IMG/VR virus record: IMGVR_UViG_2671180430_000009
Coordinates: 1-5,651 of that record
DNA from: a virus
Lineage: Duplodnaviria > Heunggongvirae > Uroviricota > Caudoviricetes
Reading direction: 5' to 3' (one strand)
Length of the DNA: 5,651 nt
Positions within the stretch are counted from its first letter, which is position 1; every line of letters begins with the position of its first letter. Positions 1,316 to 5,651 of this stretch are shown piece by piece. Below the pieces are notes generated by a model. The model was not told the DNA's origin. It made no database searches and saw only the letters and a program-made list of their open reading frames with translations. Position numbers and translations under genes: made by a program.

Positions 1316-1866
1316 TTTACCCAACGAATACAGGAAAAAGCGGAGAACACCTTCGTCTCACCACGCTGGAAAGTGTCTGGATTCAGGGAAAACTACGTAT
1401 GTGGGGGCGCTGGTCGTATATTGGTGGCGGTAAGACGGGGAATATGTTTAACCTGATGTTGACCTCTAAAAAGCTGACAAAAACGGCAATTAACGAGGCG
1501 CTCCGGAGGATGAAAAAAGCAGGTCTGAACAAGTCTGAACTTGAGGCTTTTTTGCGGGATATGATTAACGGTAAGCAAAAGAGCTGGCTGGCGCATTGTA
1601 CTGATGCAGAGGCGTTATGTATTGATCGGGTCATAAGTGAGGTGCTGGCAGAGCATCCAGGATTGATTAGCGTCCTTCGGCAACGGTATGAGGGGCGGGG
1701 GATGACCAAACGCAAAATGGCTGAACTGCTGAATGATGCACACCCGAAATGGAGTTTAAGAACCTGTGAAAGACGCATTGAGCATTGGCTAAAGGTGGCA
1801 GAATTTATTTTGTACAAACCAATGGTTATGGCTTTTGGTATAGAGAAAAAAGTTATTGCTTTTTGA
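1312..1866 (+). CDS. Putative late-gene regulator, Q-antiterminator-like (184 aa)
   Basis: ATG 1312 with strong SD GGAGG 1299-1303 (8 nt spacing); the ORF-track start at 1192 would overlap ybcO by about 120 nt and lacks an SD. It is the last gene before a terminator and tRNA array, the position of Q in Stx-type lambdoid phages. C-terminal segment (MTKRKMAELLNDAHPKWSLRTCERRIEHWL) looks like a helix-turn-helix. No lambda-Q-type Cys zinc finger, so the Q assignment is positional. Confidence 0.6.
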   Translation: MIYPTNTGKSGEHLRLTTLESVWIQGKLRMWGRWSYIGGGKTGNMFNLMLTSKKLTKTAINEALRRMKKAGLNKSELEAFLRDMINGKQKSWLAHCTDAEALCIDRVISEVLAEHPGLISVLRQRYEGRGMTKRKMAELLNDAHPKWSLRTCERRIEHWLKVAEFILYKPMVMAFGIEKKVIAF

Positions 1867-1941
1867 CGTAAAAACTGCTTCAATTCTTGTACGCTTCGCA
1901 AAGCTGTACCGCGAGGCGAATAGCAGACATGGACATTTGAA

Positions 1942-1968
1942 AGAGCCCGCTTTATGCGGGTTTTTTTA
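1942..1968 (+). terminator. Rho-independent terminator downstream of the Q-like gene (candidate tR')
   Basis: GC stem CCCGC (1946-1950) / GCGGG (1956-1960) with 5-nt loop TTTAT, followed by T7 run 1961-1967. Confidence 0.75.
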
Positions 1969-2548: not shown

Positions 2549-3692
2549 TGAGGTGTACTGGCAATAGCGGACACTACCATTTGTTCTTTTTTTAAGCAGC
2601 CATCTGATGATATTTTTCCCTGAAGGCTGCCGGGGAGATATTCCCCAGACGAGAGTGACGACGCTGACGATTGTAGAAAATCTCAATGTATTCCCGTATT
2701 ACTGAGATGGCTTCATCCCGGTTATTAAAACGATAGTGGCTCAGGCTCTCATTTTTCAGCGTTCCCCAGAAGCTTTCCATCGGAGCGTTGTCGTAACAGT
2801 TACCTTTACGCGACATTGATGTTTTCAGACCAGACTGCTCCTGTATGACCCGGTAATCGTATGCGCAGTACTGTGAACCTCGATCAGAGTGGTGGATTAG
2901 CCCGGCAGGTGGGCGCTGGCTCCTGAGCGCCATAAACAGGGCTTTACCTGTCAGCTCTTTTGTCATGCGCTCTCCCATGGCGTAGCCGACAATTTCGCAC
3001 GTATAAACATCTTTGATGCCAGCGAGGTACAACCATCCCTCCTGTGTGGCAACATACGTCAGGTCCGCCACCCAGACCTGATTTGGTGCTGTAGGAGCGA
3101 ACGTCTGGTTCAGCAGATTTGGCGCAACTGGCAGATTGTGGTTCGAGTTCGTAGTCGCTCTGAACTTGCGTTTCTGCTTACAGCGTAGCCTTAGCTCCTT
3201 ACGAAGACGTGCCAGTCGGTCACGACCAACGATGATGCCATTCTCTGCCAGCTCCGTCTGGAGCCGCCGGGTTCCATATGTTTCGCGAGTGCGGATATGT
3301 GCCACCTTAATCTCCAGTTTTAGCCGCTCATCACTTTGTTTTCTGTCTGAGGGTTCATGCTGTACCCAGTTGTAATAACCGCTCCTGGATACACCAAATA
3401 CCTGACACATCGCTTCAATGGGAAATTGTTGTCGCCATTGTTCGATTAACGCGTATTTTTCAGCGACTCCTGTGCAAAATACGCTGTTGCTTTTTTTAAT
3501 ATATCTCGCTCAAGGCGAGCTTCATTTAACGCCTTACGCAGTTGCAGAATTTCAGATTCCAGTTCAGCCACCGTGCGGGAACCAGGAGTACCGAGCCCTT
3601 TTCTGGCGGCGGTAACCCATTGTCCTAAAGTGCCTTCAGGAAGAGATAATCGGGAAGCGCCTTCACTGATCGAAAGTTGATTTTCAAACACA
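2549..3692 (-). mobile_element. IS600-like IS3-family element, apparently truncated or rearranged at its left (orfA) end
   Basis: + strand begins TGAGGTGTACTGG at 2549, 43 bp outside the orfB stop. orfA and orfB lie in -1 frame relation with an A7G slippery run (3491-3497 on +). Canonical orfA homology seems to stop near 3690 (see finding). The 3692 boundary is an estimate; if the element is intact its end lies near 3789-3812. Confidence 0.7.
2592..3410 (-). CDS. IS3-family transposase OrfB (IS600-like), 272 aa from first Met
   Basis: 272-aa product with the IS3-family integrase/DDE-type core (e.g. ...WVADLTYV..., ...HHSDRGSQY..., ...KGNCYDNAPMESFWGTLK...). Frame is -1 relative to orfA, so it is probably expressed as an OrfAB fusion by frameshifting. 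Confidence 0.9.
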   Translation of the reverse strand: MCQVFGVSRSGYYNWVQHEPSDRKQSDERLKLEIKVAHIRTRETYGTRRLQTELAENGIIVGRDRLARLRKELRLRCKQKRKFRATTNSNHNLPVAPNLLNQTFAPTAPNQVWVADLTYVATQEGWLYLAGIKDVYTCEIVGYAMGERMTKELTGKALFMALRSQRPPAGLIHHSDRGSQYCAYDYRVIQEQSGLKTSMSRKGNCYDNAPMESFWGTLKNESLSHYRFNNRDEAISVIREYIEIFYNRQRRHSRLGNISPAAFREKYHQMAA

Positions 3693-3790
3693 ATATTGTG
3701 TGGGAATGTCTGACTCCTTACCATCTCCTGTTCTGTGATGTTGTTTTGTTGCAGTTCCAGTGCTCTTTTTTCAGCACCAGAATGGTGCAT
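3446..3790 (-). CDS. IS600-like OrfA (HTH transposition regulator) with atypical or replaced N-terminus
   Basis: Residues from ENQLSISEGASRLSLPEGTLGQWV to the C-terminus match IS600 OrfA as recalled, including the leucine-zipper-like tail and the slippery run near the 3' end. The first 35 codons of this ORF (MHHSGAEKRAL...VRSQTFPHNIVF) lack the conserved helix (..EFKAEAV..) seen in IS3-family OrfA proteins. Possible starts are ATG 3790 or ATG 3724, neither with a well-spaced SD. Confidence 0.6.
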   Translation of the reverse strand: MHHSGAEKRALELQQNNITEQEMVRSQTFPHNIVFENQLSISEGASRLSLPEGTLGQWVTAARKGLGTPGSRTVAELESEILQLRKALNEARLERDILKKATAYFAQESLKNTR

Positions 3791-4113
3791 TGTCGGTCAG
3801 GTTACGTAGTGAACCTCTGGCAGGGGACTGATGATTCATCATTCTGGTGTTGTAAATATCTCTTCGGACAACTTACAAAATATTCTAAGCAAACCCCGGG
3901 AACACACTCTTAACTGCCTTGGCTGGCGGTTTTTTGTACAGCGCTCGGTATGTGTGAGCTGGAAATCAGATTTTGCATGGACTGGAATCATGCTGTTATT
4001 TAGGGGCGAAGAACTGGCTTTTTCTTCCGCCTTCTCACCAGTAACGATTAGAAAAATAATGAAATGCCCCCCTCCGGGGAGGAGGACCGTAGAAAAAAGG
4101 ACCCGCCAGCAAA
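3790..4113 (+). repeat. Copy A of a 324-bp direct repeat (noncoding)
   Basis: 3790-4113 matches 4946-5269 with only 2 mismatches (3833 G vs A, 3836 T vs G) and no indels. The preceding CA dinucleotide is also shared. No credible ORF inside. Confidence 0.9.
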
Positions 4114-4873
<760 letters not shown>

Positions 4874-4945
4874 TGGAGCACCTGTGTTGTTCTGAGGTGA
4901 GCATATCACCTCTGTTCAGGTGGCCAAATTCAGTGTGCCACTTCA

Positions 4946-5269
4946 TTGTCGGTCAGGTTACGTAGTGAACCTCTGGCAGGGGACTGATAATGCATCATTC
5001 TGGTGTTGTAAATATCTCTTCGGACAACTTACAAAATATTCTAAGCAAACCCCGGGAACACACTCTTAACTGCCTTGGCTGGCGGTTTTTTGTACAGCGC
5101 TCGGTATGTGTGAGCTGGAAATCAGATTTTGCATGGACTGGAATCATGCTGTTATTTAGGGGCGAAGAACTGGCTTTTTCTTCCGCCTTCTCACCAGTAA
5201 CGATTAGAAAAATAATGAAATGCCCCCCTCCGGGGAGGAGGACCGTAGAAAAAAGGACCCGCCAGCAAA
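4946..5269 (+). repeat. Copy B of the 324-bp direct repeat, abutting the IS911 IRL tip
   Basis: See copy A. Starts immediately after the terminal CA of IS911 IRL (4944-4945); identity ends at 5269 (GCCAGCAAA), after which the sequence continues toward the holin gene. Confidence 0.9.
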
Positions 5270-5423
5270 AACATTGGGGATGAACAGCTTTCGCTACTCA
5301 GATTGCTGGCGGGTAAAGTTCCTCATGAATTAAGAATGCTACGCGATCTTTTTTAATGGAAATGAAAATTATTGTCAATTAGTCGTGCGTGTTTTTTCAT
5401 ACAATATTGGTAAAGGTGATTCA

Positions 5424-5455
5424 GGCCATCAGAGTTTTGCTGATGGCCTTTTTTC
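5424..5455 (+). terminator. Rho-independent terminator upstream of the holin gene
   Basis: Stem GGCCATCAG (5424-5432) / CTGATGGCC (5440-5448), 7-nt loop, then T6 run 5449-5454. Confidence 0.8.
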
Positions 5456-5489
5456 TTTCCGATAGCACAGGTCTGTCGGGGGGCGGGAT

Positions 5490-5651
5490 ATGTATCAGAT
5501 GGAAAAAATATCAACAGGCATTGCCTACGGCACCTCCGCCGGCAGTGCCGGCTACTGGTTTTTGCAGTGGTTGGATCAGGTCAGTCCATCACAGTGGGCT
5601 GCGATTGGTGTGCTGGGAAGTCTGCTTCTGGGGCTTCTGACTTATCTGACG
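5490..5651 (+). CDS. S: Class II (S21/pinholin-type) holin with dual-start motif, 5' partial (runs off window end)
   Basis: Translation from 5490: [54 protein letters not shown]..., near-identical over this span to phage 21 S holin as recalled. Two in-frame Met codons (5490 and 5499) separated by two codons give the antiholin/holin dual start. No stop before the window end, which is why it is absent from the supplied ORF track. Confidence 0.85.

Follow-up and report, generated by a model that had tools for sequence, protein, structure and literature searches.

The window, by which we mean the whole 5,651-nucleotide stretch of DNA analyzed here, belongs to a lambdoid prophage and represents its late-control region. 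On its plus strand, a DUF1367 gene (426–1025) and a YbcO/DUF1364 gene (1025–1315) precede an intact gene (1312–1866) for a 184-residue Q-like antiterminator of the DUF1133 family. Four tRNA genes (2056–2366; CAT, Arg-TCT, Thr-TGT and Gly-TCC) follow on the same strand, 3′ of a first intrinsic terminator, and the last feature is the start of an S21-type class II holin gene (5490–5651; Pfam PF04971, E = 4.5e-25), which begins at ATG 5490 and carries the dual-start motif M1/M4. Two insertion sequences on the minus strand occupy much of the interval between the tRNAs and the holin. A truncated IS600 copy (2549–3687), 99.6% identical to the IS600 of related locus L009, breaks the late leader region, and an IS911 fragment (about 4114–4943) is bracketed by a 300-nt direct duplication of native prophage DNA (3788–4087 and 4944–5243; 99% identical). 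The duplicated segment is present as a single copy in the uninterrupted relative L001, where ∼680 nt lie between tRNA-Gly and the holin. More generally, uninterrupted E. coli relatives have the gene order Q-like gene, tRNAs, 290–680 nt, holin, endolysin and lysis protein.

Several smaller features accompany these genes. The first tRNA gene (2056–2132, anticodon CAT) was called tRNA-Met by ARAGORN and is annotated as tRNA-Ile in the RefSeq records of relatives; a tRNA-Ile and tRNA-Arg pair is also found in Stx-phage records, under a match to the same tRNA region. A promoter-like site, TTTGCA-18-TATTAT (2017–2046), ends 10 nt before this gene, so the tRNAs might be produced independently of Q. 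Likeness to other phages with the same tRNA block starts at ∼2039, which places the −35 of this site outside the common block. A perfect 14-nt inverted repeat (2426–2439/2485–2498) follows the tRNAs, and another inverted repeat lies 5′ of the second terminator with the 11-bp stem CCCGCCAGCAA / TTGCTGGCGGG (5258–5268/5303–5313); the first copy of the latter is cut by the IS911 fragment. The native region also contains an additional terminator-like hairpin on the plus strand (5068–5087; duplicate copy at 3912–3931).

By profile comparison, the DUF1133 protein is a distant homologue of phage 21 Q. The best Pfam model for the 184-residue ORF is PF06576 (DUF1133; E = 2e-107), and it also matches PF06530 (E = 8.2e-7; 29.4 bits, above the 26-bit cut-off), which is the Q21 family (PMC9388147). 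A profile built from seven diverse DUF1133 proteins found the Q21 chains 6p18 and 6jnx in the PDB (E = 3.6e-7), hhalign aligned DUF1133 with Q21 over 137 columns at 96.4% probability (E = 1.1e-9), and in the reciprocal direction Q21 matched the DUF1133 model (E = 1.2e-4). The two proteins are 28% identical, and an internal insertion in DUF1133 accounts for its greater length (184 residues, compared with 162 for phage 21 Q). The same assignment was made by HHpred in a survey of Stx phages, in which DUF1133 was taken as the Q antiterminator of 13 phages (PMC8136144). The alignment behind an AlphaFold model of the protein was shallow, and the quality of the model (mean pLDDT 56.5, pTM 0.39) was too low to confirm a sigma-region-4-like fold with a helix-turn[loop]-helix. 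A partial copy of the window protein, 100% identical over 175 residues, is found in Shigella sonnei. DUF1133 loci were also carried by a contig labelled Candidatus Nanosynbacter (L015, 91% identical) and by one labelled Vagococcus (L021, 59% identical); these are unexpected hosts for an enterobacterial prophage gene, and contamination or mis-binning is therefore likely.

A preliminary description of this DNA had proposed two candidate late promoter/terminator pairs, one with a −35-like TTGACG over the Q-like stop codon and the other with a TTGTCA/TTTCAT promoter ahead of the holin, leaving it unclear which was Q-responsive. Both of the strong terminators in these pairs are real and fold beyond chance. 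The one after the Q-like gene (1938–1968, plus strand), the tR′ equivalent, is present as it was given, with a GC core (1945–1950/1956–1960), a TTTAT loop and a T-run (1961–1967); its upstream A-tract and T-run also pair, which extends the stem to 1938–1950/1956–1968. The fold of 1891–1970 has a ΔG of −30.9 kcal/mol (z = −4.3), and none of 200 shuffles was as stable. This terminator is also conserved: 49 of 56 loci have one whose end lies no more than 200 nt from the Q-like stop, and all five of the 14 consensus pairs that keep pairing through two-sided changes are in its stem. The second terminator (5423–5459, plus strand), 35 nt before the holin, consists of a stem (5423–5449) followed by TTTTTTCTTTC, and the fold of 5405–5465 (ΔG −25.9 kcal/mol, z = −5.8) was again matched by 0 of 200 shuffles. 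A consensus promoter/terminator scan passed neither of the two proposed promoters and missed the first terminator, probably because the A-tract pairs with the T-run and the stem extension consumes the tail. The same scan was blind to the annotated PR′ and tR′ of phage 21, so its silence is not negative evidence.

For comparison, 58 related loci were collected together with the annotated phage 21 record (OL657228.1), and motifs were counted on 55 distinct sequences. In 51 of these 55 DUF1133 loci, TTGnnn stands 25–31 nt (mostly 28, 29 or 26) 5′ of a TAnGCT element that adjoins the stop codon. Near-consensus promoters occur in the distant clades (Yersinia, TTGACT-16-TATGAT; Providencia, TTGACT-16-TATAGT; Edwardsiella, TTGACA-16-TAGTAT). 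The elements of the window, all on the plus strand, were placed by anchoring the loci on its TAnGCT element, TACGCT (1890–1895), and the 19-nt family motif TANGCTTCGCRAAGCTGTA matches the window once, at 1890–1908, with 0 mismatches and 0.01 matches expected. The predicted −35 on this anchor is TTGCTT (1856–1861; 3/6), which lies inside the end of the Q-like ORF in a column that reads TTGATT, TTGACT or TTGACA in relatives. Between its end and TACGCT there are 28 nt, the commonest spacing in the family; the phage 21 value is 30. The predicted −10, 17 nt further on, is of the extended type, TGcTTCAAT (1876–1884; TG 1876–1877, hexamer TTCAAT 1879–1884), and TGCTTnAAT is kept in the E. coli and Enterobacter/Klebsiella clades. 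Because TTCAAT is without the normally essential A at position 2, this −10 is assigned by comparison only. Transcription is predicted to start within 1889–1891, at G1889 by analogy with phage 21 or at A1891 by the usual 7-nt distance from the −10, which would give a terminated RNA of ∼76–80 nt. The −10-like TACGCT matches the family motif and sits at the phage 21 position, and is predicted to be a sigma-dependent pause element. It was rejected as a true −10, since no clade has a −35 at 16–18 nt upstream and TTGACG is 21 nt away. Sigma-dependent pauses fall ∼10–12 nt after a −10-like element, and this distance from TACGCT leads to the conserved CTG at 1905–1907 as the predicted pause position.

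Between the predicted −35 and −10 lies the predicted Q-binding slot (1862–1877), which reads TTTGACGT AAAAACTG and has the position of the phage 21 Q-binding element (QBE). Its upstream subsite is TGACGT (1864–1869) and its downstream half contains AAACTG (1872–1877). The Q21-type direct repeat (TGAGCA twice) is absent from the slot; its halves share 2–3 of 8 bases, and resemblance to a Q21 subsite (TGA...) is confined to the upstream one. Helix H6 of Q21 contacts the bases of TGAGCA through A124, R127 and R128 (PMC6606751), and hhalign places this helix (S122–L134) on window residues S148–L160, with R150, E153 and R154 as the counterparts of the three contacting residues. Across clades, the slot DNA co-varies with the motif of this predicted recognition helix. 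Helix TCRRR, like Q21's own TCRRE, is found with TGAGCA, TGAGCC or TGAACA, helix TCE[STN]R with TTGCGC, and helix TCEKR with TTTACGC; helix TCERR, that of the window and an O157:H7 copy, accompanies TTGACGT, and T[YHC]Q[DN]R accompanies TTACCG or TTGCCG. The lineage that carries the small RNA isrK has helix TCCSR and a wholly different promoter. Similarity of the Q-like gene to this lineage (92.5%) stops at ∼1757, ∼36 codons before the stop, so that the predicted recognition helix and the promoter region have apparently been swapped as one unit. Because the end of the gene adjoins the promoter and is inherited with it, part of the helix–DNA covariation may be linkage. However, RR recurs with TGAGC in phage 21 and in DUF1133 proteins only 28% identical to its Q, which would be hard to put down to linkage alone. 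The pattern suggests that the Q helix recognizes its DNA site by a code.

When the region is compared with the definition of a Q-dependent late cassette (PMC9388147; 10.1101/651190), the first pair has a Q gene directly upstream, a −10-like pause-type element at the predicted start and a terminator before the late genes, together with a candidate promoter whose position is conserved across relatives and whose hexamers are weak in the window. We consider it likely that the prophage controls its late genes in a Q-dependent manner through the first pair, and that this pair forms a cassette of the phage 21 type. That a late promoter/terminator unit directly follows the Q-like gene, as the preliminary description had it, agrees with the annotated order of phage 21 and with that of the uninterrupted relatives. 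Its expectation that the tRNAs and later genes are read by antiterminated transcripts also fits the layout, since everything from the tRNAs through the holin lies 3′ of the first terminator and would be covered by such transcripts.

The strongest competing explanation, which we nonetheless think unlikely, is that the first terminator serves only as the end of the early operon, or belongs to an isrK-like small-RNA gene outside the control of the Q-like protein, and that late transcription starts elsewhere. The leader does have the shape of a small RNA, with a 5′ stem-loop (1892–1918, plus strand; 8 bp, loop AAAGCUGUACC) in a conserved block, followed by a single-stranded linker and a U-tailed terminator, and a small-RNA function is known for short PR′ RNAs (PMC7547250). 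Conservation of the block GCTTCGCRAAGCTGTA extends from E. coli as far as Proteus and Edwardsiella. The 5′ stem-loop was dropped as a proven RNA structure, given the weak covariation in the family (mean z −1.1, register shifts between clades and one compensatory event), and a DNA-level pausing constraint explains the conservation of the leader equally well. Near the first pair, all non-tRNA matches in Rfam were below threshold (Trp leader, 23.1 bits; isrK, 19.9 bits at 1893–1966). The isrK score falls far under the gathering threshold of that model (RF01394; 50 bits), whereas true isrK scores 67–76 bits and was seen only in the lineage of L009, L010 and L014, where it overlaps a c4-a1b1 match. 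Homology of the window leader to isrK was rejected on these grounds, and the weak match reflects shape only. The pause hexamer and the QBE slot at phage 21 spacing also speak against this explanation, and a plain small-RNA gene would leave the helix–DNA covariation unexplained. In any case, control by Q and a small-RNA role are compatible rather than exclusive.

The conservation of the leader raises a related point. The block at 1896–1919, in which the loop AAGCUGUA is near-invariant, persists in loci whose proteins share no more than 32–43% identity. We see some chance, though a rather slim one, that this goes beyond a pause-site constraint and marks either a family-specific signal for the loading of DUF1133 or a small-RNA seed. 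If it is a loading signal, DUF1133-type Q would combine a single Q21-like subsite in the DNA with another contact of a different kind; if it is a seed, it would belong to a conserved trans-acting RNA freed at the terminator in lysogens. A full-text literature search for the leader sequence found no paper.

Quite improbable, in our judgment, is a late promoter that uses TTGACG (1863–1868) as its −35, with an unnamed −10 ∼17 nt downstream and a start near 1898. The hexamer does overlap the Q-like stop codon where the preliminary description put it (TGA 1864–1866 of ORF 1312–1866), matches TTGACA at 5 of 6 positions and stands at the end of the Q-like gene, and in several relatives the real −35 overlaps the stop codon too. 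Its role as a −35 did not hold up, however. None of the hexamers 16–18 nt downstream (TCTTGT, CTTGTA, TTGTAC) is an acceptable −10, and the 21 nt between TTGACG and the pause element fall short of the 25–31 nt that separate the −35 from it in the 51 relatives and of the 30 nt in phage 21. The sister clade reads TTTACG in this column and has its −35, TTGATT, 7 nt upstream, in the TTGCTT column; the C-terminal tail of the window protein differs from that of the sister clade, which moves the stop 7 nt further downstream relative to the −35. Moreover, hexamers within one mismatch of TTGACA number 39 in the window, fewer than in shuffled sequence (64.9 ± 7.1), so a lone −35-like hexamer carries no weight. 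The comparison with phage 21 that the preliminary description had called for gives TTGACG a different place: with the same order of elements in both cassettes, it aligns with the upstream Q-binding subsite. Since the phage 21 QBE maps onto 1862–1877 with TGACGT as its first subsite, TTGACG is most likely part of a site for the Q-like protein.

The second terminator is part of a holin-proximal module (5284–5456), a segment present in 876 of 5426 E. coli genomes. In strain EC20, 5284–5495 recurs at 89.6% identity before the same holin, and the Q gene, ∼3.3 kb upstream, is of the lambda family. The terminator thus travels with the holin regardless of Q type and would need to be read through. A fragment of the module is also found in an island of E. 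coli Nissle 1917 (L062, 3501–3676), where the annotation shows no phage gene within 3.5 kb; it lies between transposase remnants near the pap operon, without the holin. A Megablast comparison of phage 21 with the region before the holin found similarity beginning only within the holin gene. Of the two roles offered for this terminator in the preliminary description, the end of a former cargo unit is not borne out, as the module occurs with and without cargo, while the need for read-through fits a part of the holin-proximal module. The TTGTCA (5372–5377) and TTTCAT (5395–5400) hexamers, separated by 17 nt on the plus strand, are where they were reported. It is very improbable that these hexamers and the second terminator make up the Q-responsive unit, or add another, directly 5′ of the lysis genes: a strong terminator does stand 35 nt 5′ of the holin and TTGTCA is conserved in relatives, but both hexamers are conserved no better than their flanks, the −10 is poor and the promoter weak and unlisted by the scan, the TAnGCT family motif and an adjoining Q gene are absent, and the same module recurs behind a lambda-family Q in EC20 and away from annotated phage genes in Nissle 1917.

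With a Q21 homologue, conserved elements at conserved spacing and two terminators in place, we infer promoter use, a start site, pausing, binding and read-through of the following kind for the phage 21-type cassette at the first pair. Sigma-70 RNA polymerase would initiate at ∼1889–1891 from the weak promoter that extends into the end of the Q-like gene; sigma region 2 would then re-bind TACGCT (1890–1895), and the polymerase would pause ∼10–12 nt beyond it. Without the Q-like protein, transcription would terminate at the 1938–1968 hairpin and yield the RNA of ∼76–80 nt. After induction, the DUF1133 protein would bind the spacer at 1862–1877, with TGACGT (1864–1869) as the core of its site, and load onto the paused complex, which would become terminator-resistant. 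Such a complex would read on past the 1938–1968 hairpin, through all four tRNA genes and the additional hairpins, and across the strong terminator at 5423–5459 to reach the holin and lysis genes; termination-resistant Q complexes are known to pass terminators over thousands of base pairs (PMC9388147). The second terminator would be a passive barrier of the holin module that shields the lysis genes from Q-independent transcripts. In this genome, IS600 and IS911 break the late region, and the switch may consequently have ceased driving lysis.

With this reading, a late-gene switch can be assigned to a prophage type that is very common: 756 of 5426 complete E. coli genomes, O157:H7 among them, carry the switch module. 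The copy in O157:H7 strains is 94.7% identical, and locus L061 comes from ATCC 35150. The reading also gives precise coordinates for the predicted promoter, Q-binding site, pause element and terminator. There are two lessons for annotation as well: a good-looking TTGACG can be a regulator site and not a −35, and a strong terminator before lysis genes need not mean a second switch.

The closest known system is that of phage 21 (OL657228.1; 10.1101/651190; PMC6606751), in which the Q stop codon is followed by the −35, a QBE in the spacer, the −10, the start, the pause element, the terminator, two tRNAs and S21. Both have 28 nt from the start of the QBE (ATTGAGCA AATGAGCA in phage 21) to the pause element, and the phage 21 pause element, TAAGCTG at +2 to +8 with the start 1 nt before it, shares TA(A/C)GCT with the window. 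On the other hand, the phage 21 −35 (TTGACA) lies 7 nt after the stop and that of the window inside the end of the ORF; the QBE subsites are TGAGCA twice in phage 21 and TGACGT and AAACTG in the window; and the phage 21 terminator starts at the pause element, whereas the window has an extra conserved block and a separate terminator, with terminated RNAs of ∼50 nt and a predicted ∼78 nt, respectively.

A second parallel comes from Salmonella. In Gifsy-1, the antQ product interferes with termination, and the downstream isrK is a short terminated RNA with partial read-through (PMC4825925). As proposed for the window, a promoter directly after the stop codon gives a short RNA that ends at an intrinsic terminator, with some read-through into the genes beyond, and in the Gifsy-type locus L014 a DUF1133 protein 80% identical to that of the window occupies the antQ position, directly 5′ of true isrK. 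The two differ in that the leaders are not homologous and that the last ∼36 codons (helix TCCSR, compared with TCERR in the window) and the promoter region diverge; in addition, a c4-a1b1 match coincides in part with the Gifsy-type isrK, and a C4 RNA and an antirepressor come after it. At ∼3075–3276 of L009, L010 and L014 a C4 antisense RNA was found after isrK, and in L009 and L010 a C4 a1/b1-target match lies over isrK. The Gifsy-type arrangement looks like a P1/P7 immI-like antirepressor cassette placed after the Q-like gene, which may affect the interpretation of IsrK.

The PR′-StxS-tR′ unit of Stx phages and the PR′/6S RNA/tR′ unit of lambda share the logic proposed here, with a promoter just after Q, early termination that leaves a short RNA, and Q-dependent read-through into tRNAs, cargo and lysis genes (PMC7547250; PMC9388147). 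StxS is cut from a 258-nt transcript (PMC7547250). The Q of lambda is of another protein family and has a pause element and binding site unlike those of the window, and no sequence similarity of the window to the Stx-phage and lambda cassettes was found beyond the tRNA block. No dissection of the DUF1133 version of the cassette was found in the literature searched; the kind of system that it represents is well known from phage 21, lambda, the Stx phages and Gifsy-1.
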